A stretch of DNA of 64,000 bases, taken from assembly GCA_963663955.1 (NCBI GenBank), contig OY760694.1, positions 3,215,251 through 3,279,250 of the forward strand, in the 5' to 3' direction. Below, one piece after another: positions 2,414 to 38,789 of the stretch. The DNA is from Acidimicrobiia bacterium. GTDB lineage: Bacteria; Actinomycetota; Acidimicrobiia; Spongiisociales; Spongiisociaceae. Each line of letters starts with the position of its first letter. Within the stretch, counting starts at the first letter, position 1. The position numbers and the translations under genes were made by a program. Under the pieces are notes generated by a model. The model did no database searches. It was given only the letters and a program-made list of their open reading frames with translations, and was not told where the DNA came from.

Positions 2414-3499
2414 GTGCCGGAGATCCGAAGGGATCAACTCGAAGACCTTTGTACAGACGTGCTGCAAGCAGCGGGGGCTTCGGAAGCGCACGCACGGTTG
2501 GTGGCCTGCCACTTGGTGGACAACGACACGATCGGGCGCTCCTCGCACGGAGTTCTGCGCCTTCGAGATTATGTGGAAGCCATCGATCAAGGGGAGCTGA
2601 TTCCCTCCGCCGGTCCCCGCATAGAATCGGAGTCCGCATCCACCGCACGCGTTGACGGCGCCTGGGCGTTCGGCCAGGTAGTCGCCGAGTTCGCCACCGA
2701 TCTGGCTATCCGTAAAGCTCGGAGCACCGGAATCGCCTCGGTCACGATGCGGCGCGCCAAACATATCGGTCGGCTGGGCCGCTATGCGGAAAAGGCCGCC
2801 GCGTGCAACATGGCGTCCATCATTTTCACCTGTGCGGGCGGCCATGGGATCAACCAGGCGCCTTTCGGAGGAGCGGAGCGCAAACTCAGCTCGAATCCGG
2901 TCGCCATGTCCTTTCCTTCCACTCTCGAAGGACCCTTCCTGTTGGATATGGCCACCTCGGTAGTGGCCGAGGGCAAGGTGCGGACTTACCGGTACCGGGG
3001 AGAGGAAACCCCGGCCGGGTGGATAATCGACTCGGCGGGAAACCCTACTACCGACCCCGACGACTACTACGCCGGTGGCGCCATCCTCCCGCTGGGCCGC
3101 GAGGAAGGGCACAAAGGTTATGCCCTCGCCTTCATGGTGGAACTGTTCGGCGGCATCCTGTCAGGGGGAGGAATACCTGGAGACCCGACGGATTCCTTCA
3201 GCAATGACTCGATGATCATCGTGCTCGATCCACAGCGCTTCGTGCCGATTGACGAAGCCAAGCGACGGGCATCACTGTTGACAGATCACCTAAAGTCCAC
3301 TCGGCGCGTCGATGACTCACAGCCCATCATGTATCCGGGGGAGATCGAGGCGACCGCCCGAATTGCCCACCGTGGCCGGCCGATCGACCTGCTTGATGCG
3401 ACCTGGCAAGGCATCCTGGACGTTCTCCGGAAGTACTCTCTACCCGAACCCTCGTTAGGTCGCATACCTACCCGAGGGACCCGAACAGAGACCAGCTAG
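2414..3499 (+). CDS. Ldh_2 family (malate/L-lactate/ureidoglycolate dehydrogenase type) oxidoreductase
   Basis: The 361-aa ORF has an N-terminal pattern (HLVDNDTIGRSSHGVLRLRDYVEAI ... HIGRLG ... GGAERKLSSNP) that matches my recollection of the Ldh_2 family. Confidence 0.75.
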   Translation: MPEIRRDQLEDLCTDVLQAAGASEAHARLVACHLVDNDTIGRSSHGVLRLRDYVEAIDQGELIPSAGPRIESESASTARVDGAWAFGQVVAEFATDLAIRKARSTGIASVTMRRAKHIGRLGRYAEKAAACNMASIIFTCAGGHGINQAPFGGAERKLSSNPVAMSFPSTLEGPFLLDMATSVVAEGKVRTYRYRGEETPAGWIIDSAGNPTTDPDDYYAGGAILPLGREEGHKGYALAFMVELFGGILSGGGIPGDPTDSFSNDSMIIVLDPQRFVPIDEAKRRASLLTDHLKSTRRVDDSQPIMYPGEIEATARIAHRGRPIDLLDATWQGILDVLRKYSLPEPSLGRIPTRGTRTETS

Positions 3500-5544: not shown

Positions 5545-6870
5545 ATGGCTGCGAAGGCTCTGGTTGGCGGAAAGGTAATAGACGGTACCGGCAGGGAACC
5601 CATCGACGACGCGGTGGTGCTGATCGACGGGGAACGGATCGATGCGGTGTTCCGTAGTGGGGAAATGGAGGTTCCCGCCGATGCCGAGGTAGTTGATATC
5701 TCCGGCTCTACGGTGATCCCGGGCCTGATCGATTGCCATGTTCATGTCGGAGTGCTGGCCGACAACTCGTTCCTCCAGGTGGAGGATCCCGGTTCCTTGG
5801 CCGACCTGTTCATGACCACCCTGTTACGCCACGGGGTGACAACAGTCCGGGACACGGGGAACTTCGATCCGGGAGAGGTCTTCCATACCTTCAAGCAAGG
5901 GCGCGATACCTGGCCGCGCTTCTTCGGCGCCGGGACGATCCTGGACGGCCCGGCCGATCCTCCGGCGCCGTGGCGATGGCTGGCGATCATCGACGATGAA
6001 GCGACCGCCCGAACGGAAACCGCCCGGCTTGCCGACGCCGGGATGGACTTTATAAAGGTGTACGTGTGGGCACGCCTCCCGGTCCTGCGGGCGGTGGTCT
6101 CCGAAGCTCACAAGCGGGGAGTAAGGGTGGCTGCACACGTTGGCCATGTCGTGACCGTCGAGGAGGCGGTGAAGGTCGGGGTCGATGCCCTCGAACATGT
6201 GCGGATAGGCCGGGAACTGGTACCGGAGGAACGCCAAGCGGACCTCGAAGCCCTGGCGGGCCGTATCCTTGATCCTCTGGTCGGTTTCCAGCCGTGGCGC
6301 TTTATCGATCCCGGATCAGATCTGGCAAACGGCTTGATAGCTCTAATGGCCGAGCGTGGGACCTTCATCACCCCCACCCTCACCCTCTCGCAAAGCATCC
6401 TGGCCGGCAACACCCCGCAGGCCGCAAACCCACCCGGACTCGACGAAATGCCCGACGCCGTCAAGGAGCAGTGGAACCAGTACGCCTACCCGTTCGATTA
6501 CAGCGAGACGGACTGGGAGCAGGCGCCGGTCGAGCTTCGCAACCAGATGACCTTCATCGGTCGAGCCCAGCGAGGCGGGGTGAAAGTAACGGCCGGCACC
6601 GACCTGACCAACCCGTTTGTTGTTCCGGGCCACAGCATGCACGAAGAGCTACGCCTTTTGGTAGAGGGTTGCGGATTCCACCCGATGGAGGCCATCGTCG
6701 CCGCCACCAGTCGGGCCGCCGAACTGCTCGGGCAGAGCAACGACCTGGGCACCGTCGAGAAGCGCAAGCTGGCCGATCTGGTGGTTCTCGAGGCTGATCC
6801 TCTGGAGGACATCCGGAACACCCGCCGGATTTCAGCCGTTTACAAGGGAGGTCGGGCGACCGTCGCCTGA
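5545..6870 (+). CDS. amidohydrolase family protein (imidazolonepropionase / Xaa-Pro dipeptidase-like)
   Basis: Contains GGKVIDGTG...VIPGLIDCHVHVG (HxH), later AAHVGH, and a C-terminal LADLVVLEADPLEDI typical of the amidohydrolase superfamily. Confidence 0.75.
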   Translation: MAAKALVGGKVIDGTGREPIDDAVVLIDGERIDAVFRSGEMEVPADAEVVDISGSTVIPGLIDCHVHVGVLADNSFLQVEDPGSLADLFMTTLLRHGVTTVRDTGNFDPGEVFHTFKQGRDTWPRFFGAGTILDGPADPPAPWRWLAIIDDEATARTETARLADAGMDFIKVYVWARLPVLRAVVSEAHKRGVRVAAHVGHVVTVEEAVKVGVDALEHVRIGRELVPEERQADLEALAGRILDPLVGFQPWRFIDPGSDLANGLIALMAERGTFITPTLTLSQSILAGNTPQAANPPGLDEMPDAVKEQWNQYAYPFDYSETDWEQAPVELRNQMTFIGRAQRGGVKVTAGTDLTNPFVVPGHSMHEELRLLVEGCGFHPMEAIVAATSRAAELLGQSNDLGTVEKRKLADLVVLEADPLEDIRNTRRISAVYKGGRATVA

Positions 6871-12251: not shown

Positions 12252-12782
12252 TCAGGTGGCTATTGCAGCGACTTTTTCAGGACGCACCGGATCGATGCCG
12301 AGATCTGCGTATGTGGCCATGGGTAGGTACGCGATGTCATGAACAGCGATTCTCGGACCAGCCGAGTCTCCTCGATCAACCAGTGCCACGACTCCAACGA
12401 TGGTGGCGCCTGTCACCACGTCGTCGACCAGCAGCACGCGCGTGCCCGATCCGACGGGTACTCCCTCGATGCGGCGGCCGGTTCCATGTCCCTTCGGTTG
12501 CTTGCAGATGAAGAACCACCGAGAGTGGTTGGCTGCGGTAATTCCGACAGCCAAGGCGTCAGCGCCCATAGTCGGGCCGCCCACCGCATCGAACTCAATG
12601 CCAGCCTCTTCTACAGCTTCCGTGATGGCCACCGACGCTGTGGAGAGATCGGTCCACTCAGCTAAAGCCTTCTTACCGTCGGACGAAGTAGCTGGACAAA
12701 GCCCCCGATACGGTCCCCGCGGATCCTCTGCGCTCGAACCGCGGATGCGCTCTTGCCGCCCGTTCACCGACCTAGCACCCAC
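12252..12782 (-). CDS. orotate-phosphoribosyltransferase-like PRTase with an abnormally short PRPP-binding region
   Basis: The motifs AVGGPTMGADALA and FFICKQPKGHGTGRRIEG resemble PyrE. The PRPP loop reads RVLLVDDVVTGATIVGVVALVDR, which lacks about 17-20 residues of the usual D-x-x-T-T-G-x-S...helix segment. Confidence 0.45.
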   Translation of the reverse strand: MGARSVNGRQERIRGSSAEDPRGPYRGLCPATSSDGKKALAEWTDLSTASVAITEAVEEAGIEFDAVGGPTMGADALAVGITAANHSRWFFICKQPKGHGTGRRIEGVPVGSGTRVLLVDDVVTGATIVGVVALVDRGDSAGPRIAVHDIAYLPMATYADLGIDPVRPEKVAAIAT

Positions 12783-12898: not shown

Positions 12899-13831
12899 AT
12901 GGTCGAACTGAAAGAGCCTGCTCGATCCCGCTATGTCCGCTCCGGCGGCGCCTCGACGCTTCGATCAGTAGTCGTAGGGGCTGCTGTCTGGTTGCTCGTA
13001 GCCGCTTGTAGCGGGAATGGTGACTCGACAAGCACCGGGCTTTCGGTAACACCTGCCCCGGGCACCTCCGGCGCTCCGGTAGCAGACGATACGACCACGG
13101 TGGTCACTACCACCACGCCCATCACTACTCGAACGACCGCCTCGACAACCTCAACCCCTACGGCAACCAGCGTAATCTCACCGTCGGATGACGAACCCTC
13201 CCCGGTCTCGACAACGACGCCGCCCCCGAGTGCTTCAACCACCGAAGTGGTAGAGCCACCTGCAACCACCACAGTCGAGATACCTACTCCGGACACCATG
13301 CCCGCCGACGCCACGGTTACCTCTGCGGTGGAGAATCCCTCCTCAACCATGCCTCCTCCATCTACAACAACCTCCGTCTCGGTGGTCGAAGAACCGCCGA
13401 CCGTCGCCTTCACCCCGGCAGATGACCTGCTCGACTACGACATGATCGACGTTCACACGGGCGCCACCGTCAACTTACGTTCGGTAGCCACGGGTGAGAA
13501 ACCGCTGCTGTTCTGGTTCTGGTCCCCGTTGTGAGAGACGTGCCGGACCGAAGGCCCGGCCTTCGAGCAGTTCGCTCGGAACAACGCCCATCGGCTCAAC
13601 GTCGTAGGAGTAGGTGGCTTGGGCACCTTCGAGGACGCTCAGAACTACATTACCCACACCGGGGTGACCTTCGCCTTGCTGTGGACCGACACCTGGGACG
13701 TGTGGGACCACTACGGCATGCAGAGTACGTCCGACTTCATCCTCCTCGACCCGTCCGGCAATCGAGTCACCAACGGCGCTCAACCTTATGACGAGGCCCG
13801 CATAGAGGCCCTGGTGGAGGGCTTGTTCTGA
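12899..13831 (+). CDS. TlpA/ResA-like thioredoxin-fold lipoprotein, candidate selenoprotein (in-frame UGA at 13532-13534 in a U-E-T-C motif)
   Basis: Track ORFs 12899-13534 and 13619-13831 are in the same frame, and the whole span 12899-13831 is open apart from a single TGA. There is a lipobox (LLVAAC) and a Thr/Pro-rich linker. The domain then reads ...PLLFWFWSPL-U-ETCRTEGPAFEQFAR...DFILLDPSGNRV. Confidence 0.65.
13542..13560 (+). promoter_or_regulatory. hairpin 7 nt downstream of the UGA (candidate bacterial SECIS)
   Basis: GCCGGACC-GAA-GGCCCGGC forms 8 bp with one A.C mismatch and a 3-nt loop. Confidence 0.4.
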
Positions 13832-13942: not shown

Positions 13943-15049
13943 ATGACCGCATCCGATCCAGCAGGTTTAGCAGTACGACCCAAGCGTCTCCGCTCGCGTA
14001 CCTGGTCGGCGGTGCTGGTAATACTCGCACTGCTGTTTTCCATCATCGTGCCAATCCCTGCCGCAACCGCCGCCGAATTCTCCGATGTGGCCGGTAACAG
14101 CCACGAGACAGCCATCACCGCGCTCGCCGACTCGGGCGTGCTTGACGGCACCGAATGCGGAACGGGACGGTTCTGCCCGGACGATCCCATCGAACGGTGG
14201 GTAATGGCTGTGTGGTTGGTTCGCGTCCTCGGCGGTGACGTAACCTCGGGCGGTACTTCTCGATTCGCCGATGTCGACTCTTCCGCTTGGTGGTCGCCCT
14301 TCACCGAGCAACTCGCCATCCGCAACATTACAGCCGGGTGTAGAACCGGCCCTCTGCGCTACTGCCCCCAGGATGCGGTAACGAGAGGCCAGATGGCGAC
14401 CTTCTTGGTCCGGGCGTTCGATCTAGCCCCAGCCGCCCCGGCCGGATTCGTCGACACCGGCGGCAATACCCATGAGACGAACATCAACGCTCTGGCCGCA
14501 GCCGGCATTACCGCGGGGTGCAGGACGAGTCCGCTCAGCTACTGCCCTCAGAATGCGGTGACGAGAGGCCAGATGGCCTCCTTCCTGCACAGGGCCTCGC
14601 TCAAACAACAGGCCACCGCCGCAGAGATCAGCGACGACGTTCCCAACATCGAGTTGACCGATCTGGCAAGCGGCGCAACCGTCAATCTACGCTCCCTGAT
14701 CTCAGGTGACACCGCAATCCTTCTTTGGTTCTGGGCCGAATGGTGACCTGTCTGCCGGGGGCACGCCCCCGAAGTCGAGCAGTTCGCTCGGCAGAACGCA
14801 GATCGGCTAACCGTAATCGGGATCAACCCGGCTAGCTTGAACAATCAGGCAAGAGGGACGAGCTTCGTAAGCCGCTACAACTTGACGTTTGCAAACCTGT
14901 GGGACGGTTCCAACCGGGTATATCAACATTACGGCCGACCCTACAACTCCAACTTCTGGCTACTGGACCAGAACGGCAACCGGGTGGGCGACCGAGCGGT
15001 TAGCTTCTCCGTGCGTAGCGCACAAGAGAAACTCGACAGCTTGGAATAA
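13943..15049 (+). CDS. SLH-repeat protein fused to a TlpA-like thioredoxin domain, candidate selenoprotein (in-frame UGA at 14744-14746 in a U-P-V-C motif)
   Basis: Track ORFs 13943-14746 and 14837-15049 share a frame, and a single TGA separates ...AILLWFWAEW from PVCRGHAPEVEQFARQNADRLTVIGIN...FWLLDQNGNRV. The N-terminus has a signal peptide and three SLH-like repeats. Confidence 0.65.
14756..14771 (+). promoter_or_regulatory. hairpin 9 nt downstream of the UGA (candidate bacterial SECIS)
   Basis: CGGGGG-CACG-CCCCCG forms a 6-bp G/C stem with a 4-nt loop. Confidence 0.35.
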
Positions 15050-15466
15050 TAGGGTGCCGCAGCCCTACGGCCCTTATCCCGAGCGAACTTGCCTTCGGCG
15101 GTAAGCGCCGACGCCGACCACCACACCCACGTAGGCCAACCAAGGTATATCCGTCACGCCGGTTGAGCCCTGAGGGTTTCGTCAACCAACACCTCTAGGT
15201 CAACACTGGCTGTTGCAACAGTCTTGTCATCCCAACCGGTTAGGTCCTTCACTTCCTGGGGGGCTGATTCCCGGGCGCACCCTAATCAGAGCGTAGAGCA
15301 GGTACGCGCGCTTACCCCGGTCACTGCCATTCTCAGGTCGGTCGGAACTCATGCGCGATCTGCTGCTCTATGTGCCAAAAACCCCACCCAGACAGTTCGC
15401 TTTCAACACCGGAATCGGCATCCTCATCTTCATGCCTTTCCTATCCCTTTGTAGTAATAAGTCTAA

Positions 15467-16425
15467 GAGCGTCCGCGGGTAGGGGTTAGTTGAGGTTGTA
15501 GCGGTCTCGCCATTTGATGAGTTTGATGGTGATGATGAGGGTGATGGCTAGGTTGAGTTGGGCGTGTCGGTGGTGGGTGTTTCGGTCGGTGTTGCGGCGG
15601 AGTTGCCCGTAGTTGGTGAGCCATGAGTTGGTTCGTTCGACGGTCCAGCGCATACCGAGGGGTGCGGGTGTTTTGGTGTTGCCGGTTTGGCCTCGTGGTT
15701 TTTTCTTGGCGCATATGACGTCGGTTATGCCGGCGGCGTCGCAGAGGGCGCGCACGGTTTTGCTGTCGTAGCCTCGGTCTAGGTGGAGGGTTTCTATGTC
15801 GGGGAGCAATCCCCGCCGGTTGATCGCTTCGAGGGTGGGTTGGAATAGGATGCTGTCGTGGCGGTTGGCCCCGTTTGTGGCCCAACCGATCGGTATGCCG
15901 TTGCGGTCTGTGGCCAGGGACCATTTCGGGCCGGATTCGGCCCGGTCGCAGGGGTTTTTCCCGGTTCCTTCCCCCCCGGAGGGCGCTTTGTGTTGGCTAC
16001 CGTCGACCGAGACCTCGGATAGGTCCAACCCGATCACACGGTCGTAGGCGGCTACGGCTTCTGCTTCGAGGTTCTCGAAGACGCCTGCTTTCATCCATTC
16101 ATCGCGTCGGGCCCGCAGAGTCGTGTCCGACACCTCTTTGTTCAAGAGTTGTTCGGCTGTTTCCCACAAGCAGCCGGTCACCAACCGGATCAGTATCCCC
16201 TGGAAGCAGACACGGTCCGGTTTACGGGGATTGTGACAGCCCAGGGGATGGTTGTCCTCCCGGGCGGGCAACAGACCCTTTGTGGCTTTCCACACCGCGT
16301 TTGCTACTTCGGGGTCGAGTGCGCGCATAATGATACCTCCACCAGTTGGGGGATTTGTGTTGCACTCGGTATGAAACCCGAGACAACCCCTCAACTGGTG
16401 GATTTCCACCTACCCGCGGACGCTC
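15467..16425 (-). mobile_element. IS5-family insertion sequence, copy 1 (959 bp)
   Basis: It has 17-bp terminal inverted repeats GAGCGTCCGCGGGTAGG / CCTACCCGCGGACGCTC. It is flanked on both sides by TAA (a 3-bp duplication within CTAAG) and encloses one transposase ORF. Confidence 0.8.
15486..16409 (-). CDS. IS5-family DDE transposase (DUF4096-type N-terminus)
   Basis: Contains GILIRLVTGCLWE, HLDRGYDS and RWTVERTNSWL..YGQLRR. A probable internal ATG start gives MRALDPEV. It differs at 4 residues from the copy at 37745-38668. Confidence 0.85.
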   Translation of the reverse strand: MEIHQLRGCLGFHTECNTNPPTGGGIIMRALDPEVANAVWKATKGLLPAREDNHPLGCHNPRKPDRVCFQGILIRLVTGCLWETAEQLLNKEVSDTTLRARRDEWMKAGVFENLEAEAVAAYDRVIGLDLSEVSVDGSQHKAPSGGEGTGKNPCDRAESGPKWSLATDRNGIPIGWATNGANRHDSILFQPTLEAINRRGLLPDIETLHLDRGYDSKTVRALCDAAGITDVICAKKKPRGQTGNTKTPAPLGMRWTVERTNSWLTNYGQLRRNTDRNTHHRHAQLNLAITLIITIKLIKWRDRYNLN

Positions 16426-16888
16426 TAAGTGATCCTGCACGCCTCGGCTCGACATCGGATGTCCTCCGGCAGAAACAGATCGGTCAGATTAGCCATCGCA
16501 AGCGTTACCGGCCGAGGTCGTTCGGCACTGCCTGAGCGGTTGGAGGTTCACCCGGATTCACGGAGCCCTGCTTACGCAAACAGTTTGCGTATTTCTACAG
16601 CTTTGCGCAATCCGCTCAAAGTTTGCAATCTGCGCAAAGGCAAGGCGCATACACGCACGGGACTGCAATGTCTGCCCAAGCTGAAGCTCACAAGACCGGG
16701 CCGTTATCGGGACGAGGCACACCTAACGACTCGTAGAGGGAACTCGGATAATCCGGAGACGTCATGAGACGGTTGCCCGGTTTGGATGCACGCCGAGGTT
16801 ACTCCCCCCACGAAGATCCGTCGGGCAGTTGTGCTGCATCCTGCCTAAGCTACGGTTCATGGCCTTCCCGTCTGGAATACGGTGAGGA

Positions 16889-18688
16889 GTGTTAACCGTG
16901 GTAGAAGCCCCCCGCCTGAGTGCCGGTGTTCGTATAGAGGCCGTCTGGATCAGCGGTTTTCGCGTGTTGCGAGACGTATGTGTGACCCTTGATCCGGAAA
17001 CCACAGTTCTTGTTGGTGAGAACAACACCGGCAAGTCCGCCTTTCTGGAGGCGCTGGAGACTGCTCTGGGAACGCGATCCCCCGTACCAGACGACCTCCA
17101 CGTCGACGGGGCTGGTCAGCAGAGCCGCGAGTTCCTTGTAGACCTTCTCTTGGTGCCTGCGAGAGGAACCCGGTTCTCTCAGCATCTAGAAGCACTGTTC
17201 GGGGATGCAGTCCGCTCTGAGACCCCACAAGGCTCTGTCGGCGAAGGAGCGCGCAACTTCGTGGCGATACGTACCATCGGTACGATTGGCGTCGATCACA
17301 GCACCGTCGACCGTCGTCGCTGTTTCGTTGAAGGTTGGCCCGGTTGTGGCTCACCCACCGGGACCGGAGTTATGGAGGTGCCGGCACCGCGGGTGACTGA
17401 GCGCCACCTAACCGTACTCTCGTTCGCTCTCTTGCATGCAAATCGTGATCTCGTCGCCGACATGCGACGACAAACAAGCCGGTGGGGTCGACTGCTGGCT
17501 CAGCGCGACCTGGATCAGGACATAGAGAAGTCCGTCGAGGGCCAATTGCGGGAGTTGGGTGAACTTCTTCTCGGGAACAGTTCTCTGCTTGGTCGCCTTC
17601 GGGACCGCCTCGACGAGGCCCGGAAGGCTATGCCGACCGTCGACGAGGTAGAACTTGAACCTCTACCAAGCAGGGTCGCCGACCTCACAAGGGCGACGGA
17701 TATTGTTGTGAGCGCCCCTGCAGGAGCCCGTTTGCCGCTACGGATGCAGGGCCTGGGGAGCCGGAGCCTCGCCGAAGTGCTGGTCTATCGAGCGTTTGTC
17801 GGCGAAATCCCGGGAATGGAAGAGCCCTTCTCACCACACATTGTGGCTGCCTTAGAAGAACCCGAGGCCCACCTACATCCACATGCCCAGCTCGCCCTTA
17901 TGCGCATTATCGATCAAATACCCGGTCAGCGGATCGTCACCACGCACTCAGGCCAGATCGCAGGAACCACACCGATCCGACAAGTTCGAGTCTTCCGGCA
18001 CTCAGATCAAGGCATCGAGGTCAGACGCTCCGGGCACCTTGACGATGCGGACCAGATCAAGACGCACCGTCTCATCGCCCGTTCCTACGGCCAAGTACTT
18101 TTCGCTCGCCTGGCGATCATCGGAGATGGGACAACTGAGCACGACGCCTTACCTGTGTTCGCCCGTGCTCACTGGGGAGCGGAAGCCGAAAGTTTGGGCG
18201 TAACCTTTGTCGATCCGGGGTCCCTCGCCGCGGCGAAGGGGCTTGTCAAAGTGCTTGAAGGCCTTTCCATACCGTGGCTAGCGCTCGTTGACGCCGACCA
18301 GGGGGGCGATAACGCACTACGAGCTATAGGCAACTTGCTTGAACGAACCCTTAATAGGGAGTCGGAAGAAGTCGTGATGCTCCCGGACCGCACAGACTTC
18401 GAACGATATCTGATCGACGAAGGCCTTCAAGCGCCTATCAGGGATGGAATCCGCGCATTCTACGGACCCTACGCACTGGCCAGATTCTCGAAACAGACCA
18501 ATTATCGTGGACGGGGCGAGGATGATGTCCTTGAGGGGTTTCTCGACAAGAACAAGGGAACTTACGGGGCTGCCGTTGCCGAAGCGGTCGTCGCGCTCGA
18601 GGATGAGAACGGTAATCCGACGATTCCGGGGCGGGTCGCGGAGTTATTCAAGCGGGCTGACCATATACTCGGAATGCGTTCGCGATGA
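16889..18688 (+). CDS. gajA: OLD-family ATPase/TOPRIM nuclease (GajA-like)
   Basis: The N-terminal ABC-like ATPase reads VWISGFRVLRDVCVTLDPETTVLVGENNTGKSAFLEAL, with Walker B AALEEPEAHLHP and TTHS. The C-terminal TOPRIM signature is LAIIGDGTTEHD ... LVDADQGGD. It is followed directly by a UvrD-like helicase. The GTG at 16898 has the better SD spacing. Confidence 0.7.
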   Translation: MLTVVEAPRLSAGVRIEAVWISGFRVLRDVCVTLDPETTVLVGENNTGKSAFLEALETALGTRSPVPDDLHVDGAGQQSREFLVDLLLVPARGTRFSQHLEALFGDAVRSETPQGSVGEGARNFVAIRTIGTIGVDHSTVDRRRCFVEGWPGCGSPTGTGVMEVPAPRVTERHLTVLSFALLHANRDLVADMRRQTSRWGRLLAQRDLDQDIEKSVEGQLRELGELLLGNSSLLGRLRDRLDEARKAMPTVDEVELEPLPSRVADLTRATDIVVSAPAGARLPLRMQGLGSRSLAEVLVYRAFVGEIPGMEEPFSPHIVAALEEPEAHLHPHAQLALMRIIDQIPGQRIVTTHSGQIAGTTPIRQVRVFRHSDQGIEVRRSGHLDDADQIKTHRLIARSYGQVLFARLAIIGDGTTEHDALPVFARAHWGAEAESLGVTFVDPGSLAAAKGLVKVLEGLSIPWLALVDADQGGDNALRAIGNLLERTLNRESEEVVMLPDRTDFERYLIDEGLQAPIRDGIRAFYGPYALARFSKQTNYRGRGEDDVLEGFLDKNKGTYGAAVAEAVVALEDENGNPTIPGRVAELFKRADHILGMRSR

Positions 18689-20619
18689 GCGTCACCACTC
18701 TTACCGAACAGCAGATCGCGGCTATTGAACTGGGCGACGGAGCGCACTTGATCACCGCTCCTCCCGGCTCTGGCAAGACCGAGGTGCTGGTACGACGGGT
18801 GATAAGCCTCTTGGACGGATCGCCGCGTGATCTTTTCCGGATACTTGCCCTGACCTACACGGTAAGGGCCGCTCAAGAACTGGAGAAGCGTGCTCGGATG
18901 GTGGTTCCCGAAGACGACCTCTGGCGGGTCAACGCGACAACCTTCCACTCCTTCGCCCTTGGCATTCTGGAGAACTACGGAGGTCCGGTAGGTCTGAAGA
19001 GGCCCATAACCGTCATCTCGGACCTGGAAGACAAGCGCGCTCTCGTCATCCAAACTCTTGAGGAACGGTTCGAGCTGATCGGATCGATAGATCGTTCTGA
19101 ATGGCGGAAACTGTTCAATAGGATCGCCCTGATGAAAACCAGTCTCACCCACCCGACACCGGGCGGACGAGATCGGGTACTAAACGGCAGGATCCGGCTG
19201 TCCGAAGCCTACGAAGCTTACGAAACTGCGCTGACGAATACCGGAAGTGTTGACTATGAAGGGATGATCCGCCAAACGGTCAAGCTGATGGAGATACATC
19301 CATGGGTGGCCTCACACATCCGCCGACAGTACCGGCACATACTGGTCGATGAGGGCCAGGAGCTAACCGGAGGCCAGTACGAACTCTTAAAGATGATACG
19401 GAATGATAACCATCAGAGGTTCTTTGTCGTCGCCGACACCGACCAGTCCATCAACGCCTTCGCGGGGGGTGGTCCTACCTTCTTACGAGAGTTTGTCTCG
19501 GACTTCAATGCCGACGAACACAAGCTCACAACTAACTTCCGGAGCGCCCGGGCCATCGTCGACGCCTTGGGGGGGTTGCGCAAGAATATCGGGGAACGCG
19601 GTGCGCCGACAACGCTCGATAGTGGAACTCTTGCTAGGGGGTGGGTCGGGGCACGCTCCTATGTCAACGACGAGCACGAAGCAGAATCTACCGGTAAGTG
19701 GATCCGCTCCGTCCTGCAGACGGGGCTTGATCCGGAATGGGTGTACAAGGGAGAGGCCACCGCGGTAACACCCGAGGACATCTGCGTTCTCGGGCGAACC
19801 CGCTATGCGTTTGCCAACCTCTTGGATGATCTCCAAGAACACGAGGTTGCCTTCTCTCTGCGCGTCGAGGAAAAGGCCCTCTTCGAGTCATCTCCGGGCC
19901 GCCTAAGCCTCTACGCCCTCAAGCTGGCACAGAACCCGAGAGACCTACCGGCGCAGCGTCGCCTACTGGAAGAGTTGGGAGAACAATACAAAGAGGGCGA
20001 TGACGGTCATGAAGTCCTGTCGACTGAAGCCATCCTCCGAGACTCCGCAAAGCGAGGAAGCCTCCCCCAAGAGTTCATCGAAGCCCTCCTGGGCTCGGAC
20101 ACTGCGACCCCGAACGGCCTCCAAGCGGTTTCGGCATTGATAAGAATGGACGAGATCGGCATCGACCTAGACGATACCGAAAGAGAAGCGTGGTATCGCG
20201 ATCAAGAGCACCTTCAGCGACTGCTCACCGACTATCAAACAACCACCGCGGCGCCTTATCGATCTCTCGCCGGGTTCCTCCGCATGTTATCTCGGCTTGA
20301 GGGCGTCCCACCGTCCGAACCCGGCGTGAGGGTCCTGACACCGCACCGCGCCAGAGGGCTCGGCTTCAAGGTGGTGATTCTTCTAGGAATGAACGACGGC
20401 AACTTCCCTCACTACAAAGCCACATCCCCCGAAGAACTGGCCGAGGAACGTAGAGTGGTCTACGTCGCAGCAAGCCGAGCAGCCAGGGCATTGCTCCTCA
20501 CCCGACCACGTACTCGGCTGTCGAGATATGGCAACTGGTATCGATGCCGGGAGTCACGTTTCATCCGTGAGATGGGGCTGACGATGGAGGAAGTCGCCCC
20601 GGACGCCGACGCCTCCTAG
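18685..20619 (+). CDS. gajB: UvrD/PcrA/Rep-type superfamily-1 helicase (GajB-like)
   Basis: Contains LTEQQIAAIELGDGAHLITAPPGSGKTEVLVRR (motifs Q/I), ILVDEGQE, TNFRS and VLTPHRARGLGF. Its start overlaps the gajA stop (ATGA). Confidence 0.75.
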   Translation: MSVTTLTEQQIAAIELGDGAHLITAPPGSGKTEVLVRRVISLLDGSPRDLFRILALTYTVRAAQELEKRARMVVPEDDLWRVNATTFHSFALGILENYGGPVGLKRPITVISDLEDKRALVIQTLEERFELIGSIDRSEWRKLFNRIALMKTSLTHPTPGGRDRVLNGRIRLSEAYEAYETALTNTGSVDYEGMIRQTVKLMEIHPWVASHIRRQYRHILVDEGQELTGGQYELLKMIRNDNHQRFFVVADTDQSINAFAGGGPTFLREFVSDFNADEHKLTTNFRSARAIVDALGGLRKNIGERGAPTTLDSGTLARGWVGARSYVNDEHEAESTGKWIRSVLQTGLDPEWVYKGEATAVTPEDICVLGRTRYAFANLLDDLQEHEVAFSLRVEEKALFESSPGRLSLYALKLAQNPRDLPAQRRLLEELGEQYKEGDDGHEVLSTEAILRDSAKRGSLPQEFIEALLGSDTATPNGLQAVSALIRMDEIGIDLDDTEREAWYRDQEHLQRLLTDYQTTTAAPYRSLAGFLRMLSRLEGVPPSEPGVRVLTPHRARGLGFKVVILLGMNDGNFPHYKATSPEELAEERRVVYVAASRAARALLLTRPRTRLSRYGNWYRCRESRFIREMGLTMEEVAPDADAS

Positions 20620-20985: not shown

Positions 20986-22413
20986 CTATCTACCTATAGC
21001 CTGGAGCAATTCTTCGGTTTCGCGGGCGAGACGTTCCGCAACTGCTACATGCTCTATTTCGGGTATACCCCACTCCGGATCGATCGACTCCGCCACTATA
21101 CGTATACCACCAGCCGCTTCGGTGTCCTCGAATCTGTATACGCCCAGGTCGTCCGGACTTATAGGGGAACCTCCCGATGCATGCTCGGCCCCCTGCGACC
21201 TGAGCATGCAATTGGAAACCTGATGTAGAAACTCAGAGCTATGAGTGGTACACAGAACCCTCACGCCTGCCCCGGCCAGGGCCACCAATGACTCGGCAAC
21301 AGCCAGGATCGCCTCGGGATGCATATGAGCCTCAGGCTCGTCAATCAGCAGCAAATCGCCTGGGCGCAAGATGTGCTTAACCCAACCGAGCAGCGGCACT
21401 ACCTCCGCCACCATCGAAGAAGCCCGCTGCACCGGAATCTCTTTACCATCCTGTGCATAGGTAAAGGAAGGAACCTTATCCCTCCCCCTTCCGAACTTGA
21501 TCTCACCGGCGATCAACCCATCCAAACGCTCGACAGCCGCAAACATCATCATGTCGGACTGGAGCGGTCGTCGAGGCTGTATGAGTGGAAGCAACTCGGA
21601 CAGGAAATCCAAGGCTATGCCTCCCAAGGCGGCAGGTTCCCGACCCTTGAGAGCGAGACGGTCACGCTCCCGTTCGAGCCTGAGACGCACCACATCCGTC
21701 CACGCCTCCAGTAACCCGGATCGCCCGGCCGGTAAGTAATAAGCCGATCCACCTAAGCCGGCCGACGGCAGGAAACCCTCAGCCCACACAAACCGGGCAA
21801 GCTGAAGAGATATCCGCCGTCTCGCATATCCAGCAAGGTCACCCTCTCGGGACCTTTCCCAATACCTTCGGGCACCCCTCAGGACGGGACCGCGCGTCGG
21901 TCGACCGGGTTGGTAAGCCATGGCCGGGAAGAAGTCCGCTACTTCAGCAGAAGGGCCTCCACCCAAACCGAACAGGAACCGATCCTCTCCGGCGATCCTG
22001 CAGGAAACCGCAACATCAAGATCGGAGTCGGCAGCCCACCTTTGTATCTCATCCAACCCCTTGACATCAAAATAGATCTTCAGTCGATCCTCTAGATGTT
22101 CGTCCGCTTGACCCATAAGGTCGCCCAACCACCGCTCGGCTTTCCCCCTCACGGACGACCCGAACACAGCCCAACCATCGTCAGCTACGGATCGACGATC
22201 GGCGGCAATCACCTGTTCGACTTCCTCGTCGGACAAAAGCGGCTCCGGCACGCCATTCACCTGATCCACAGCCTTGAACACCGAATACACCGCCTGAGCA
22301 GCGTACGTCTTCCCCGTATTGTTCTTACCGATCAGCACCGTGAGAGGATGAAGCTGGATCTCACCCTCTCGAATCGGGCCAAGATTCCGCAAACGGATCA
22401 TTGGATAAGCCAC
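20986..22413 (-). CDS. stand-alone ABC/SMC-like ATPase (AAA_15/21-like)
   Basis: Contains MIRLRNLGPIREGEIQLHPLTVLIGKNNTGKT (Walker A), YLPAGRSG (Q-loop-like), LLLIDEPEAHMHPEA (Walker B) and CTTHSSEF. Confidence 0.65.
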   Translation of the reverse strand: MAYPMIRLRNLGPIREGEIQLHPLTVLIGKNNTGKTYAAQAVYSVFKAVDQVNGVPEPLLSDEEVEQVIAADRRSVADDGWAVFGSSVRGKAERWLGDLMGQADEHLEDRLKIYFDVKGLDEIQRWAADSDLDVAVSCRIAGEDRFLFGLGGGPSAEVADFFPAMAYQPGRPTRGPVLRGARRYWERSREGDLAGYARRRISLQLARFVWAEGFLPSAGLGGSAYYLPAGRSGLLEAWTDVVRLRLERERDRLALKGREPAALGGIALDFLSELLPLIQPRRPLQSDMMMFAAVERLDGLIAGEIKFGRGRDKVPSFTYAQDGKEIPVQRASSMVAEVVPLLGWVKHILRPGDLLLIDEPEAHMHPEAILAVAESLVALAGAGVRVLCTTHSSEFLHQVSNCMLRSQGAEHASGGSPISPDDLGVYRFEDTEAAGGIRIVAESIDPEWGIPEIEHVAVAERLARETEELLQAIGR

Positions 22414-22767: not shown

Positions 22768-24873
22768 TCAGGCCGCTTCGAAGTCCCGTGTGTTCGACAG
22801 GTCGAACGTGTTGGCGTGTGAGGGTTCGGGCGAGTACTCGGTGTAGCTGATCCGGGTATACGCTCCGGAATACAGTGCCTCTTCGAATGCTTCAAGACGT
22901 ACTGGCGCACCTCTCACTGTCAACCGATCGTTGTCATCGTATTGCACCAGCTTGGGGCTACGCGCGTCGTGGAGGATCAGATTCCTCGTCACGTCCTGTA
23001 CCAGGATGGGCACACCCAGAACAGATCGTCCTTCAGCCTGGGGCTTAGCCCAGTAGTGCGCCATGGGCTGGGCCGTAACCTCACCTGCCGTTTGGGCTGC
23101 GATGGTCTCTGTGTCAGGTTCGGCTCCGGTCCATATGTACCGGAGCGACGCCACACCCCGCTGGTCGGTGTTTCTAACGGTTGGGACGGTTCCGACTCCG
23201 TGGCCGTCATCAGATGTGAATGCGATGCTTTCCCCAACCACCGGGGCGCCGTACTGGTCGGTGAGGACCCCTGTCACCACGTTCACGGGACCCGGCCCGG
23301 ATCCGGTGAGTTCGTGGTAACGCATTACCTGCCTGAGCCGGAGGGTGGTAGCCCTAGGCGCTTGCTCGGACCATGTAACCGGGGCGTCTAGCGTCGAGCC
23401 ATCTCCGCCCGCCACTCCAAGGGTGCTCCGGTCGATCACAGTAAGACCCTGGACCGACACGTCGATGTCCATCGTGGTCTCATCACCACCCGTAGACGGG
23501 TCCGGATCGGACGCTTGGTAGGAAACAGTAACCCTGCCCCCGACATCTGTCCGGTAGGTTTTGACACTGGTCAGGTCTCTCACCCCGTTCCTTACATACG
23601 TGGTGGAGACTTGTACCCGGTGTCCCGCTTCGCCAACCGCTCGACCGTCTTCGTCGACCAACTGGAATACGAACCCGATTGGCACACCAAACATGAGTGC
23701 CTGGGCGGTGGACCGCATATCGTCGGCGACCAGGACCGACGAGGCTGGTTTCAGCACCTGGACGTCGGCCATAGCAGCTGTAGTAGTAGCCAACCGGAAG
23801 CGGCTCCCCTGAGAACCCGTCCAGGCCCACAACCTTATGTTGTCGACTGGTTGAAGGACCACCCGAACGTTACCGGACTCATCAAGCTGCTGATCGGACC
23901 CATCAATCGTGCACACCCGTGCTCCGACCGTGGCCTGCACTCCCTCCCGGCAGGCGCCATCTGCGCCGAACAACTCGTAGGGATCGTCGGCCGAGGTGGA
24001 AAACATGTCTATTCGCATCCCGGTCCGGGGCTGGAACCTGGCGTCACGAACGGAAACCTGCACCTCGAGCGTGTCGCCGGCGGAGATAACCGAGGAGGCG
24101 CTCTGGATCGATATGCCTTCCGGGCGTGAGTTCGTATGGGCTAAGGCCCGGGTCACGAATAGGGCCATCTGGCCCCTCGTTAGGAGGGTTCGGGGCGAGA
24201 AGGTCGTGGCAGTAACCCCCACCGTGATGCCCATCTCGTACATCACCCTCACCGCGGTGACCACCAGCTCGGACTGGTCGCCCAGATCCTGAAACACGTC
24301 ATCGTCCGGCGTGACCACAGATACGTCCGTCCCGCCGGGACCGGTAGGGGCCAAATTGAGGAAGCGGTACAGGAAAAGGGCCATCTGGCGGCGATCCATC
24401 GGGCTATCCGGGTGGAAGGTAGTAGGCGAGGTACCCCGAGTAATCCCCATGGTCGCCAGTTGATTGATGGCGACTTGGATGTGAGGAGCATGGTGGGCGA
24501 TATCCTGGAACCCTTGATCGATTGCCACAGGCACAGCGATTCCGGCCGGCCCGGAGGCCCGCACCAAGAACATCGCCATCTGCCAGCGAGTTATCGGATC
24601 GTCGGGTGCGTATCGGTTGGCCGTTTTTCCTACCGAAATGCCGTAGTAGGCAAGACAATTGATGCCCTGTTCGGCGAAATGGCCGGCTACATCCAGGAAT
24701 CCGGCTGAAGCATTAGCGGCTCCCGTACACGCCGAGTAGACAGCAAGATGGTCCGGTTGGCCGTCAACAGCTCGGACCGGTGACGGAGCCGCCACCACCG
24801 ACGCAGCGACCAAAGCGGCAAGCAAGACCACTGCCGTACGTTTTGAGGCCCATGTGCTCATACACTCTGTCAC
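22768..24873 (-). CDS. large secreted surface protein: signal peptide + 3 SLH-like repeats + Ig-like/beta-rich C-terminal region (paralogue 1)
   Basis: It has a signal peptide. The SLH block begins YSAC...AGFLDVAGHF..INCLAYYGI...ITRWQMAMFLVRA, with two further SLH repeats. It also has the HTNSRPEG motif shared with the other four paralogues. Confidence 0.7.
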   Translation of the reverse strand: MTECMSTWASKRTAVVLLAALVAASVVAAPSPVRAVDGQPDHLAVYSACTGAANASAGFLDVAGHFAEQGINCLAYYGISVGKTANRYAPDDPITRWQMAMFLVRASGPAGIAVPVAIDQGFQDIAHHAPHIQVAINQLATMGITRGTSPTTFHPDSPMDRRQMALFLYRFLNLAPTGPGGTDVSVVTPDDDVFQDLGDQSELVVTAVRVMYEMGITVGVTATTFSPRTLLTRGQMALFVTRALAHTNSRPEGISIQSASSVISAGDTLEVQVSVRDARFQPRTGMRIDMFSTSADDPYELFGADGACREGVQATVGARVCTIDGSDQQLDESGNVRVVLQPVDNIRLWAWTGSQGSRFRLATTTAAMADVQVLKPASSVLVADDMRSTAQALMFGVPIGFVFQLVDEDGRAVGEAGHRVQVSTTYVRNGVRDLTSVKTYRTDVGGRVTVSYQASDPDPSTGGDETTMDIDVSVQGLTVIDRSTLGVAGGDGSTLDAPVTWSEQAPRATTLRLRQVMRYHELTGSGPGPVNVVTGVLTDQYGAPVVGESIAFTSDDGHGVGTVPTVRNTDQRGVASLRYIWTGAEPDTETIAAQTAGEVTAQPMAHYWAKPQAEGRSVLGVPILVQDVTRNLILHDARSPKLVQYDDNDRLTVRGAPVRLEAFEEALYSGAYTRISYTEYSPEPSHANTFDLSNTRDFEAA

Positions 24874-25104: not shown

Positions 25105-27177
25105 TCAGCGGTTCGTCAGTATGTAGCCGTTGACTATCCCGGAGCCGGCACCCATAATCCGGTATTCGAGGGTATCGCGGACAGTCAGGTCATCTTCGAA
25201 ATCCGAGTAGCTGACGGCCTTCTTGTTGATGGTGAACTGATCATTCGAATCGTACTCCACGAGGAGGATGTCGTTAGTGGCCACGATAATCGCGGTGTCC
25301 TCATCGGTGTCCACCACTCGAACGGTGCCCGAACCGTTTGCCGGGCCTTGTATGCGGGTGACCCAGAACTGGCGCGTAGTGGACGTAATCCGATCGAACG
25401 AACCGGTTACCCGCTCGGCGAAGCTTTCGTTCGAGTCCCTTTGGTAGTTGAGGGCGGCCACCCCGCTCGCATTGGTAGTACGTCGGATCCCGTTCGGAAC
25501 CCCTCTGCTGTCATTGGACGAGAAGACCACTTGCTCGCCTCTTACCGGCCCCCCATATTGGTCACTGAGGAGGGCTGTGACCGTGGCAGCTGCACCGCTT
25601 CCCGCGGATGAGGCCACTACGTATTCCTGCAATGCTGAAAGGGTCAGCGTGGTGGGCTCAGGTCGTTCATCGGACCATTGCAAGGTCGGATCGTCGCGGG
25701 TTCCGTCATCATCCACAATCCCGACCGCCGTCTCGTCGGTAACGCCGAGACCGCCTCCCGGCATCACATCAAGATCCAGAAACGCCACGTCACCCCGCTC
25801 CTCCGATGGGTCGATGTTGAGGAAGGTTGCCTGCGCGGACCCGTCGATTCCGGTCTGCTTGGTCAGGGTGGTCGTCTCGATCCTCTTTCCCCCGTCCCGT
25901 GACTCCTGAACTTCCACCACGAATGACGCCCCCTGCCAGGGAACCGGGTTCCCGTCGTCGTCGACCACCTGGAAGGTGAAGGTCACCGCTCTACCGAAAG
26001 GCACCCGCACCGCACTGTCCGGTAGGTCGTCGGTCACCAGCAGGGCGGCAGGTGTACTGCGAGTGGCTACGTCTACCGCCACGAAACGGGTGCGGTTCAG
26101 GTCGAACACAGCACTGAGATTTCCTGTCCACACCCAGATTCTTACAATCGCCGACTCACCGACTTCAACATCGGCAGTCAAGTTCCCGGAGATGTCGGTG
26201 GTTGGATCCCGACGATCAATGACACATTCGGTGGCACCCGCCGCGGGTATCGCCTCGGATGTGCACCGGCCCTCTTTGTCAAACGCCTTGTCCTGTGTCT
26301 CGGTGGTGAACAGGTCCACCCCCTGATTTGCAAAGGCTCCGTGGGTGCCGTCGCGGAGGGTTATCGAGATCTCAGCGCTTGACCCCTTGAACACCTTCTC
26401 GTCGGTGGTCTGAACAGACAAACCGGCGGGACGGGCGTTGGTGTGGGCCAGCATACGGGTTATGAATACCGCCATCTGGCCCCGGGTAACCCAGGCGTCC
26501 GGGGAGAACGCATTGGCGGTGGTCCCTTGGGTGACACCCAACTCGTAGAGCCGCCGTATGGCCCGGTTGGTAACGAAGGGCACTTGGTCTAGGTCCTTGA
26601 AGTTGCTGTCATCAGGCCGGACATCACGTATGGCTGTGCCTCCAGGCCCGATAGGAGCCGCCTCCAAGAACCGGGACAACAACATGGCCATCGACTGGCG
26701 TGTAACCGGTTCGGCAGGTCCATAGGTTTTATCTGCCAAACCCGGCATGATCCCCAATTGAGCCATCTGGTTGATTCCGGCCTGGATGTGAGTAGCGTAG
26801 GTGCCTAGGTCGGTAAACCCCTGGGCGGTGGGCTTGGGCAGCACGAGCCCGGCCGGATGGGTTGCTCGCTGTAGGAACAAGGCCATCTGCCAGCGGGGGA
26901 TTATGTCGCGAGGAGAAAACCTCCCGGCCCCCGTACCGAAAGTAATTCCGTAGTGAGCAAGGCAGTTAGCAGCTTCCTCGGCGAAGTTACCGGCCATGTC
27001 AACAAACCCGGCAGGGGTTACGGCGGCGTCGACACAGGCAGAATACCGGGCTGGATGATCCACCACCCCGTCCACCCCTGCCGCGGGAGGTAGGTGCCCG
27101 AATAGCAGAGATCCCACCAGCAACAGGGCGAGCGTCGGCAACGCCCAACGTTTGTGCGGTGCTGCCGCTTCGAACAT
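25105..27177 (-). CDS. SLH + Ig-like surface protein (paralogue 2)
   Basis: Same architecture: YSACVDAAVTPAGFVDMAGNFAEEAANCLAHYGI..., HTNARPAG, a C-terminal HYW/FWV motif and Y-D-x-N-D-x-F. Confidence 0.7.
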   Translation of the reverse strand: MFEAAAPHKRWALPTLALLLVGSLLFGHLPPAAGVDGVVDHPARYSACVDAAVTPAGFVDMAGNFAEEAANCLAHYGITFGTGAGRFSPRDIIPRWQMALFLQRATHPAGLVLPKPTAQGFTDLGTYATHIQAGINQMAQLGIMPGLADKTYGPAEPVTRQSMAMLLSRFLEAAPIGPGGTAIRDVRPDDSNFKDLDQVPFVTNRAIRRLYELGVTQGTTANAFSPDAWVTRGQMAVFITRMLAHTNARPAGLSVQTTDEKVFKGSSAEISITLRDGTHGAFANQGVDLFTTETQDKAFDKEGRCTSEAIPAAGATECVIDRRDPTTDISGNLTADVEVGESAIVRIWVWTGNLSAVFDLNRTRFVAVDVATRSTPAALLVTDDLPDSAVRVPFGRAVTFTFQVVDDDGNPVPWQGASFVVEVQESRDGGKRIETTTLTKQTGIDGSAQATFLNIDPSEERGDVAFLDLDVMPGGGLGVTDETAVGIVDDDGTRDDPTLQWSDERPEPTTLTLSALQEYVVASSAGSGAAATVTALLSDQYGGPVRGEQVVFSSNDSRGVPNGIRRTTNASGVAALNYQRDSNESFAERVTGSFDRITSTTRQFWVTRIQGPANGSGTVRVVDTDEDTAIIVATNDILLVEYDSNDQFTINKKAVSYSDFEDDLTVRDTLEYRIMGAGSGIVNGYILTNR

Positions 27178-28819: not shown

Positions 28820-29436
28820 TGGTCCGAACTAAACCGGTCAGCATCAAGGAGGCCGGCCTCGTATTGGTTGAGGGCAAGGATGACCAGAAGTTTCTCCACC
28901 GCCTGAGTGATCACATGGAACTCAGGGGACTCCAGATTCTCAGCTATGGAGGGAAGGACACACTTCGAGATTACCTAAGGACCATACGCCGGCTGCCCGG
29001 GTACGAAAGCGTGCAACATCTCGCAATCGTTCGCGACGCGGACGATAATGCTGAGAACGCCTTCCGCAGTGTCCGCAGCGCGCTGATCGACGCGGAATTA
29101 CCGGACCCGCCAAGACCGGATGAAATGGCATCGTTGCCAAAAGTTGGGCTAAAAGTCTCGGTGATGATCATCCCCCCTGGCTTTCAACGGGGCTGTTTGG
29201 AAACCTTGCTTTGGCAGATTATCAAGACCGCCTCATCCGCGAATTGTATAAGCGAGTATATTGATTGTGCTGAGATCCCTGCCAGAGGAACCCGGCGCGA
29301 TAGAGCGATGGTCCACGCTTACATAGCCGCCCAGCACAAGCCGGGCCTCAAGATCGGTGAGGCCTCCCAGGCTGGCTACTTTGACTTGGACCATGCTGCA
29401 CTCCGCCCTGTCAAGACCTTCTTAGCAGAGTGGTAG
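28819..29436 (+). CDS. small TOPRIM-like protein (copy a)
   Basis: The GTG start shares one nucleotide with the ATPase TAG stop (TAGTG). It has the conserved Glu motif LVLVEGKDD and the acidic D-x-D cluster AIVRDADDN, matching the TOPRIM pattern. Confidence 0.6.
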   Translation: MVRTKPVSIKEAGLVLVEGKDDQKFLHRLSDHMELRGLQILSYGGKDTLRDYLRTIRRLPGYESVQHLAIVRDADDNAENAFRSVRSALIDAELPDPPRPDEMASLPKVGLKVSVMIIPPGFQRGCLETLLWQIIKTASSANCISEYIDCAEIPARGTRRDRAMVHAYIAAQHKPGLKIGEASQAGYFDLDHAALRPVKTFLAEW

Positions 29437-38687: not shown

Positions 38688-38789
38688 TAAGTGAACCTAA
38701 ACTCGACGAATAATTACGCAAAGACGCAAAGATACGAATAGACAAATAAATACGCAACAAACTTCTCCGGCTGGCGGTATGGTGCTTCT

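Follow-up and report, generated by a model that had tools for sequence, protein, structure and literature searches.

The gene, its reading frame and the in-frame UGA codon

In a stretch of 64,000 nucleotides from an Acidimicrobiia bacterium (contig OY760694.1, positions 3,215,251 to 3,279,250; the whole stretch is called the window below), an open reading frame (ORF) for an S-layer homology (SLH) protein is closed by a TGA codon, and behind this codon the same frame continues into the second half of a thioredoxin-like domain. The question raised by this locus is whether the TGA is a stop or a selenocysteine (Sec) codon. Judged from the sequence comparisons given here, the gene at 13943-15049 very probably encodes an SLH-fused selenoprotein with a signal peptide, three SLH repeats and a DsbE/DsbF-like domain carrying Sec268-Pro-Val-Cys271. 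The direction of catalysis is much less certain than the identity of the gene.

The ORF from ATG 13943 has 267 codons and is closed by TGA 14744-14746, and past this codon the same frame stays open for 100 codons, up to TAA 15047-15049. Read as one unit, the predicted complete selenoprotein gene (13943..15049, + strand) has 368 codons, with Sec at codon 268 and then TAA at the end, a layout that its orthologues share. The residues right after the TGA are PVCRGHAPEVEQFARQ... (P-V-C-R-G-H-A-P-E-V-E-Q-F-A-R...), so that the active-site motif is W-[TGA]-P-V-C and U-P-V-C corresponds to residues 268-271. The putative Sec codon (14744..14746, +) takes the first position of UxxC and aligns with Cys in homologues, and the resolving Cys of U-P-V-C is encoded by TGC at 14753..14755 (+), a residue that is Cys in all listed orthologues. 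An earlier reading of this DNA from sequence alone had described one continuous frame through the TGA and a U-P-V-C motif close to WCPxC, and both descriptions hold. In the public annotation, the protein is a 267-aa "S-layer homology domain-containing protein" which ends at the UGA codon.

To see how TGA is used elsewhere, we looked at the 48 longest non-overlapping ORFs of the window. It turned out that 24 of them, which carry ordinary Pfam domains, are closed by TGA. Since TGA is thus the commonest ordinary stop, the genome is not recoded, and global UGA reassignment was ruled out. Searching all six frames of the window for the pattern W-F-W-x-x-x-*-x-x-C returned only the site at 14744 and one at 13532 in the neighbouring gene (12899-13831), which means that an in-frame TGA was met only at the position of the redox Cys. 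A separate downstream gene was also considered and rejected: the first start past the TGA is TTG 14837, which would leave out the active site. Scanning for promoters and terminators gave nothing useful.

Comparative evidence for selenocysteine

In the protein database search, more than 100 SLH-only proteins of about 245-290 residues were obtained, and full-length forms were few. About 109 of the best 120 homologues stop right before the TGA residue (WFWAEW, WFWSPY, WFLSPF and similar). At the UGA column, Cys is present in the three full-length relatives P0002 (WFWSPY-C-PTC), P0011 (WFWAPW-C-PQC) and P0023 (WFWAPW-C-PDC).

At the DNA level, the pattern WFWAEW followed by TGA identified 13 species-level SLH-type orthologues in Acidimicrobiia genomes, several of which are labelled Candidatus Spongiisociaceae or Spongiisocius. 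All of them (13 of 13) have the TGA, then P-x-C, and then 100-102 conserved open in-frame codons. For 12 genomes with 100 stop-free codons, the downstream substitutions at the first, second and third codon positions are 1832/1513/2866 when all pairs are summed, and 10/8/32 against the nearest orthologue; the other two frames downstream of the TGA hold stops. The conservation of the UGA and of the frame behind it is far beyond chance, and on these alignments the translation of the downstream half is supported. The survey proposed in the sequence-only reading, of whether orthologues carry Cys or Sec and whether they keep the SLH fusion, gave a clear picture: putative Sec dominates, Cys forms exist, and Spongiisociales-type genomes share the fusion.

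The SECIS element

Both window genes have two hairpins past the UGA, and so do 44 related members of the family (46 sequences in total). We compared them with the published model of the bacterial selenocysteine insertion sequence (bSECIS; PMC13188914), which allows a loop of 3-9 nt, a stem of 4-16 bp, a spacing of 16-37 nt and a minimum free energy (MFE) of -7.5 kcal/mol or lower; its loop rule asks for G within the first two loop positions, with G or U next.

Hairpin B (14774..14792, +; GUCGAGC-AGUUC-GCUCGGC) is proposed as the SelB-binding SECIS. It has a 7-bp stem with -11.6 kcal/mol, its loop AGUUC (14781-14785) starts 34 nt past the UGA, and it agrees with all four published criteria. The window holds just two copies of the 17-mer TCGAGCAGTTCGCTCGG from this hairpin, and the second lies in the neighbouring gene at an identical offset. 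Its six core pairs are formed in nearly all of the 46 sequences, with compensatory changes from CG to UA (3) and from AU to GC or CG (3) and with AU (8) or GC (6) as the loop-closing pair; the change from AU to GC or CG couples the second base of a Glu codon with the third base of an Ala codon. The covariation score was reached by none of 500 shuffles, and in slid controls the paired share falls from 81% to 24-41%. Besides, codons +10 to +14 show a synonymous variation of 0-0.15, compared with about 0.4 on both sides, and the G-U-U of the loop is invariant.

Hairpin A (14756..14771, +; CGGGGG-CACG-CCCCCG), with a stem of 6 bp and -12.6 kcal/mol alone, is read as a probable accessory structure upstream of the SECIS. 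It spans positions 12-27 counted from the U of UGA and has a mean MFE z-score of -1.87, and its stem sequences and registers vary among the 46 family members. The pair G15:C23 is replaced by A:U in loci L082 and L085 and by C:G in L089, the 3' partner being a synonymous third position. This is the 6-bp G/C hairpin to which the sequence-only reading had drawn attention. It exists as described there, but in the window it misses two of the four bSECIS criteria, those on the loop G and the spacing (loop CACG, 15 nt to the UGA), and the adjacent hairpin at 14774-14792 is the one that agrees with all.

A second geometry was found in 50 of the 55 other family members, in which an invariant GGUC tetraloop at positions 29-32, 26 nt past the UGA, is carried by a covarying stem (GC/UA/AU). 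In the SECIS of E. coli fdhF, the apical motif is GGUC as well. This GGUC-tetraloop geometry is used by about 50 loci among L086-L219 that are without the EQFAR motif, for example L157 (Ilumatobacter nonamiensis YM16-303). The family may therefore be viewed as a natural series of SECIS elements, with the GGUC tetraloop 26 nt past the UGA in one form and two hairpins with the loop at 34 nt in the other.

Signal peptide, SLH module and redoxin domain

From the translation, residues 1-44 (13943..14074, +) appear to be a signal peptide, with the basic n-region RPKRLRSR, a hydrophobic core and A-T-A-A ahead of E45. The structure model has low confidence over these residues, and the SLH fold begins at about residue 45.

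The SLH module (14078..14602, +) contains three repeats (residues 46-98, 108-161 and 169-220), located by Pfam, the structure model and Foldseek. The Pfam SLH profile (PF00395) scores 42.5 bits against a cut-off of 20.8 (E 6.1e-11), and the match of the protein to NF033190 comes only from the SLH tail of that family. With an alignment of 12 sequences the predicted local distance difference test (pLDDT) of the model was below 50, and an alignment of 114 sequences was used instead, which gave an AlphaFold model with pLDDT 90-98 across residues 45-225. All of the 15 best PDB matches in Foldseek are three-repeat SLH domains (template modelling (TM) score 0.79-0.88, root-mean-square deviation 2.0-3.0 Angstrom). 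Among them, SpaA of P. alvei and Sap of B. anthracis (7SV3, 3PYW, 6BT4) have E of about 3e-8 and TM 0.82-0.88. The three SLH-like repeats described in the sequence-only reading are thus recovered by both profile and model, and the SLH assignment stands.

In every SLH repeat a Cys pair is conserved, and so is an Arg (IERW, TRGQ and TRGQ; family consensus TRAQ). C78, C133, C141, C193, R85 and R148 are invariant in the 114-sequence alignment, while C72, C201 and R208 are kept in at least 90% of its sequences, and the conserved Cys residues of the module total six, in three pairs. The five large SLH proteins encoded elsewhere in the window have no such pairs.

Behind the SLH module, a DsbE/DsbF (TlpA/ResA)-like redoxin domain (residues 229-368; 14627..15046, +) is split by the UGA, according to Pfam and PDB matches. 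Domain searches were run with U replaced by C. PF00578 (AhpC-TSA) extends across the TGA over residues 229-333 (E 2.4e-13; 50.5 bits against a cut-off of 26), and Redoxin (E 1.9e-10) and Thioredoxin_8 are also placed across it. The best solved relatives by sequence are M. tuberculosis MPT53/DsbE (1LU4, E 1.9e-14) and DsbF (3IOS, E 8.7e-12), both of which align their CxxC at the UGA column. For the Cys orthologue P0002, the model has pLDDT 77-91 over the redoxin domain and TM 0.81-0.86 to 1LU4 and 3IOS, and it also superposes on ResA, CcmG and pneumococcal Etrx1/2. Named NCBIfam subfamilies stay below their cut-offs (ResA 37.3 against 170, dsbE 25.9 against 123, TlpA 20.7 against 230), and because the scores are so far under, the gene is not a member of them, even if it presumably functions in a similar way. 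The ResA-like WAxxUGC selenoprotein NF041054 reaches 19.5 bits of the 300 needed, the motif here being UPVC, not UGC. By the naming used in the field, the predicted catalytic domain falls under "Prx-like thiol:disulfide oxidoreductase" (PF00578, UxxC).

The tandem partner and the family

The neighbouring gene (12899..13831, +) is, on the same sequence features, a second selenoprotein of lipoprotein type. Its lipobox is LVAAC, its Thr/Pro-rich linker has about 150 residues, and its motif is L-U-E-T-C, with the UGA at 13532-13534 and the SECIS hairpin at 13562-13580. The redoxin domains of the two proteins are 38% identical. This order, lipoprotein-type and then SLH-type, is kept in L082, L085, L089, L090, L091, L092 and L167, not in all loci.

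A broader pattern was found in at least 120 loci, and about 95 of the matches listed are true UxxC redoxin genes across Acidimicrobiia. They are spread over Ilumatobacteraceae (including the cultured Ilumatobacter nonamiensis YM16-303), Aldehydirespiratoraceae, Poriferisodalis and Microthrix. Generally, the layout is a lipobox, a Thr/Pro/Ala/Glu-rich linker and the redoxin; the SLH form occurs in 14 loci. Since the family includes the cultured I. nonamiensis, Sec insertion and the enzyme chemistry can be tested directly.

In Ca. Poriferisodalis, where a wall anchor was joined to this selenoenzyme independently, the Sec redoxin stands behind three CWB2 repeats (PF04122, E 8.4e-24). This locus (L209; Ca. 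Poriferisodalis sp., CBDDDL010000002.1) contains, on the minus strand, three tandem Sec redoxin genes with TGA at 1244, 3673 and 5631, two of which have three CWB2-type N-terminal repeats (Pfam-confirmed for one) and C-terminal extensions of about 400 residues. What's more, five database proteins of 571-596 residues (P0107, P0110, P0112, P0114 and P0117) combine RCC1-type repeats with SLH and end in ...LLWLYSPY. From their sequences, they look like larger SLH-Sec-redoxin forms stopped at the Sec codon.

When the genes around 88 loci were clustered, most clusters proved to be shadow ORFs. Genuine neighbours are, at Ilumatobacteraceae-type loci, genes for lipoate or pyruvate dehydrogenase and, at SLH-type loci, proteins with leucine-rich repeats (LRR) plus SLH; 20 kb of context in Ca. 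Spongiisocius gave no functional clue.

The Sec machinery

A scan with a SelA motif found selA and selB adjoining in five Acidimicrobiia loci from other genomes. In L236 (an Ilumatobacteraceae genome), selA-selB is accompanied by a tRNA-Sec at 2845-2940 (-), and in L309 (an Acidimicrobiia-type genome) by selD and a tRNA-Sec at 5701-5795 (+). The two tRNA-Sec genes share long identical stretches, which are usable as a selC search seed for Spongiisociales. Searching with a SelA profile gave more than 8000 hits; organisms named among them include Acidimicrobiales, Ilumatobacter and the sponge isolate Actinospongicola halichondriae. Close to the redoxin genes, ARAGORN found no tRNA on 18 orthologue loci, and tblastn with E. 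coli SelA, SelB and SelD against 221 loci found nothing.

These results can be set beside published surveys. SelA and SelB were reported to be enriched in sponge symbionts (Slaby et al. 2017), and Table S4 of that study gives two SelA, one SelB and one SelD for the sponge Acidimicrobiia bin76. According to a 2026 preprint, each of the 84 complete Actinomarina genomes has selA, selB, selC and selD.

Alternative explanations

Several observations weigh against a SECIS-dependent selenoprotein, or against the reductive role that we favour for it. Rfam gave no SECIS match, at gathering and at permissive thresholds, and returned chance matches only; the 34-nt spacing from the UGA to the loop of hairpin B is at the far end of the accepted range of 16-37. 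There is no tRNA (ARAGORN) and no sel gene within the window, and among the 120 listed of the more than 8000 SelA profile hits none is on a redoxin-carrying contig. For the role of the enzyme, the conserved neighbour clusters checked contain no CcdA/DsbD, VKOR or Msr, and M. tuberculosis DsbE and DsbF, its nearest relatives of known structure, have been described as oxidants. Three rival accounts of the UGA and its hairpins, and one of the catalysis, have to be weighed with these points in mind.

If the TGA were a true stop, the gene would be a pseudogene or encode a plain short SLH protein, and the redoxin half would be a decaying untranslated remnant. The public annotation treats it so throughout, and TGA is the usual stop codon in the window. 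But such a stop would cut the thioredoxin fold exactly at the catalytic Cys position, in front of 100 codons that 12 diverged genomes keep open and conserved, with substitutions of the coding type and a covarying hairpin, and the same pattern is repeated in the neighbouring paralogue and in about 95 other family members (among the matches listed); we regard this account as very improbable. Hardly more credible is an account in which this lineage reads through the UGA, or decodes it with a suppressor tRNA as, for example, Trp, Gly or Cys, with selenium playing no part, for which the missing tRNA and sel genes of the window speak and for which the hairpins could in principle promote read-through. 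It is opposed by the half of the ordinary window ORFs that TGA ends, by the restriction of in-frame TGA to the redox Cys position, by apical loops (GGUC, N-G-U-N-N) which are those of SelB-binding SECIS elements, and by the selA, selB, selC and selD genes of related Acidimicrobiia. A selenoprotein in which hairpin A is bound by SelB, with hairpin B kept for some other reason or both forming a composite element, seems unlikely, yet clearly less far-fetched than these two. The structure of hairpin A is conserved with many stem sequences and compensatory changes, its loop lies about 15-19 nt from the UGA, near the geometry of E. coli fdhF, and in many members it is GAG or GAAG, with G first. In the window, however, both the loop CACG and the 15-nt spacing are outside the bSECIS model, the register shifts between members, and the hairpin is nearly absent in two orthologues of the gene-1 (lipoprotein) type, L082 and L085; the invariant G-U-U loop and the frozen synonymous sites belong to hairpin B.

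With regard to catalysis, an oxidase or isomerase role like that of DsbE/DsbF is a serious alternative, although we consider it somewhat doubtful. The enzyme would make or shuffle disulfides in exported wall proteins and be re-oxidised by O2, peroxide or a VKOR/DsbB-type partner. This would suit the oxidant role reported for DsbE (MPT53) and DsbF, the six conserved Cys in three pairs on the SLH module, and the lack of CcdA among the conserved neighbour clusters checked. On the other hand, most members of the fold family (TlpA, ResA, CcmG, Etrx) act as reductants, and the five large SLH proteins of the window are without such Cys pairs. Sec in place of the attacking Cys makes redox centres faster and more reducing, lowering the redox potential in model redoxins, and for this reason we favour, by analogy, a reductive or repair role like that of Etrx1/2 and TlpA.

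Possible mechanism and function

For the SLH-fused selenoprotein, the following course of events may be proposed. At UGA 14744, SelB with Sec-tRNA(Sec) would bind the G-U of the apical loop of hairpin B and insert Sec, and hairpin A (14756-14771) may act as an accessory structure at the mRNA entrance. The protein would then be exported and its signal peptide taken off. The SLH module could dock on pyruvylated secondary cell-wall polymer, which would put the selenol/thiol centre in the wall or S-layer zone. As the least certain step, the selenolate may attack disulfides, sulfenic acids or peroxides on envelope proteins and then bond to the sulfur of Cys271 (Se-S). The tandem partner, a lipoprotein-type Sec redoxin carried on a long flexible linker, is a likely candidate for the shuttle between the membrane and the wall-bound enzyme.

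A further speculation, to which we give rather little weight, is that the tandem pair forms a selenium-based redox relay across the monoderm envelope, in which the lipoprotein-type member feeds the SLH-docked enzyme from a membrane partner. If this were true, the SLH-docked enzyme might repair or remodel surface proteins or detoxify oxidants derived from the host or from seawater, and Sec would have been selected because fast Se-S exchange compensates where no diffusible partner is available. In that case, selenoenzymes anchored to the wall (SLH, CWB2) would be an adaptation specific to Acidimicrobiia that live with sponges.

The surrounding window

Besides the selenoprotein pair, the window contains five paralogous SLH proteins of about 700 residues, all on the - strand (22768-24873, 25105-27177, 35267-37432, 49261-51366 and 51528-53828), three of which also carry Big_1. 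Their presence indicates an SLH-based surface layer in the organism.

The window is also a dense defence island. A complete Gabija anti-phage system is located at 16889-20619 (+), with GajA (PADLOC E 3e-102) and GajB (E 4e-107) overlapping at stop and start. Two pairs of an AbiLi/PDC-M38 ATPase and DUF3226 were found, plus further AbiLi-like and PD-T4-4_A-like ATPases; the genes of the AbiLi/PDC-M38/PD-T4-4_A type are at 27737-29436 (+), 43653-45829 (-), 40568-41698 (+), 47527-48465 (+) and 20986-22413 (-). Two copies of an insertion sequence (IS) of 967 nt, at 15463-16429 and 37725-38691, encode a DDE_Tnp_1 + DUF4096 transposase; they are 99% identical, inverted and 21.3 kb apart, and the Gabija system lies between them, together with several genes for SLH proteins. 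The copy at 15463-16429 begins 414 nt past the stop of the SLH selenoprotein gene. An ORF of 176 residues at 12252-12782 (-), between yjeF and the selenoprotein pair, has the phosphoribosyltransferase-like motif VLLVDDVVTG and no Pfam match at 1e-5, and is possibly a degraded gene.

Comparison with known systems

To the sequence-only reading, no SLH-anchored Sec-dependent thiol:disulfide oxidoreductase was known. For the SLH fusion this agrees with the literature searched: pairing "S-layer homology" with "selenoprotein" or "disulfide oxidoreductase" in full text led to unrelated papers only, and the name "Spongiisocius" was not found. The selenol redox centre outside the cytoplasm is not new in itself, being an extracytoplasmic UxxC redoxin of a kind already listed. 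The catalytic family and extracytoplasmic UxxC selenoproteins are already known, and what is new are the wall-anchor fusions (SLH, CWB2; not found in the literature searched) and the size and lineage of the unannotated clade.

Through the fusion, the selenol redox centre of a monoderm bacterium would sit on its cell-wall polymer, a location not found in the literature searched. Two unrelated wall anchors, SLH and CWB2, are joined to the same Sec redoxin in different genera, which suggests that the location itself is selected. In addition, more than 100 database "S-layer homology domain-containing proteins" from sponge-associated relatives appear to be the front halves of selenoenzymes, so selenoproteome counts for sponge symbionts and Acidimicrobiia would be underestimated.

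The nearest catalogued selenoproteins are the "Prx-like thiol:disulfide oxidoreductase" (PF00578, UxxC/UxxU; for example Geobacter WP_010940744.1), a listed predicted family (PMC9312934, PMC13188914) known since 2004 (PMC9312934), and the "thiol-disulfide isomerase-like" family (PF13905, UxxC), listed in the same two papers. Like them, the window gene has these Pfam families above threshold, the predicted Sec first in UxxC and a bSECIS in the coding region after the UGA, and in both cases the prediction comes from Sec/Cys pairing. Those entries, however, are catalogued by the catalytic domain alone, and "SLH" does not occur in PMC9312934 or PMC13188914; in the latter, a 2026 review, "Actinobacteria", "Actinomycetota" and "sponge" do not occur either. 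In contrast to the Prx-like entries, the window gene has a three-repeat SLH anchor (CWB2 or RCC1+SLH in relatives), a tandem lipoprotein-type paralogue and an Acidimicrobiia-wide clade.

M. tuberculosis DsbE (MPT53) and DsbF, compared by fold and motif only, are the best match in sequence and fold and share the LWFW-x-P-W-C-P-x-C context; they are exported actinobacterial proteins as well, but they have Cys, are without SLH and are soluble or lipid-anchored. S. pneumoniae Etrx1/Etrx2 (4HQS, 4HQZ) and TlpA/ResA/CcmG have the same fold (ranks 3-42) and are envelope-tethered CxxC redoxins outside the cytoplasm, and the lipoprotein tether of Etrx1/Etrx2 resembles that of gene 1 (12899-13831). They differ in having Cys, not Sec, and in being tethered to the membrane, not to a wall polymer.

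For the anchor, the closest systems are the SLH domains of SpaA (Paenibacillus alvei) and Sap (Bacillus anthracis). In the model, the window SLH module has their three-repeat fold, within 2.1-2.5 Angstrom over about 170 residues, and the Arg motif of this type, TRAE/TRAQ, is kept (TRGQ twice). Two differences stand out: each repeat of the window protein has an extra conserved Cys pair, and the passenger of the anchor would be a selenoenzyme of 140 residues instead of an S-layer lattice domain.

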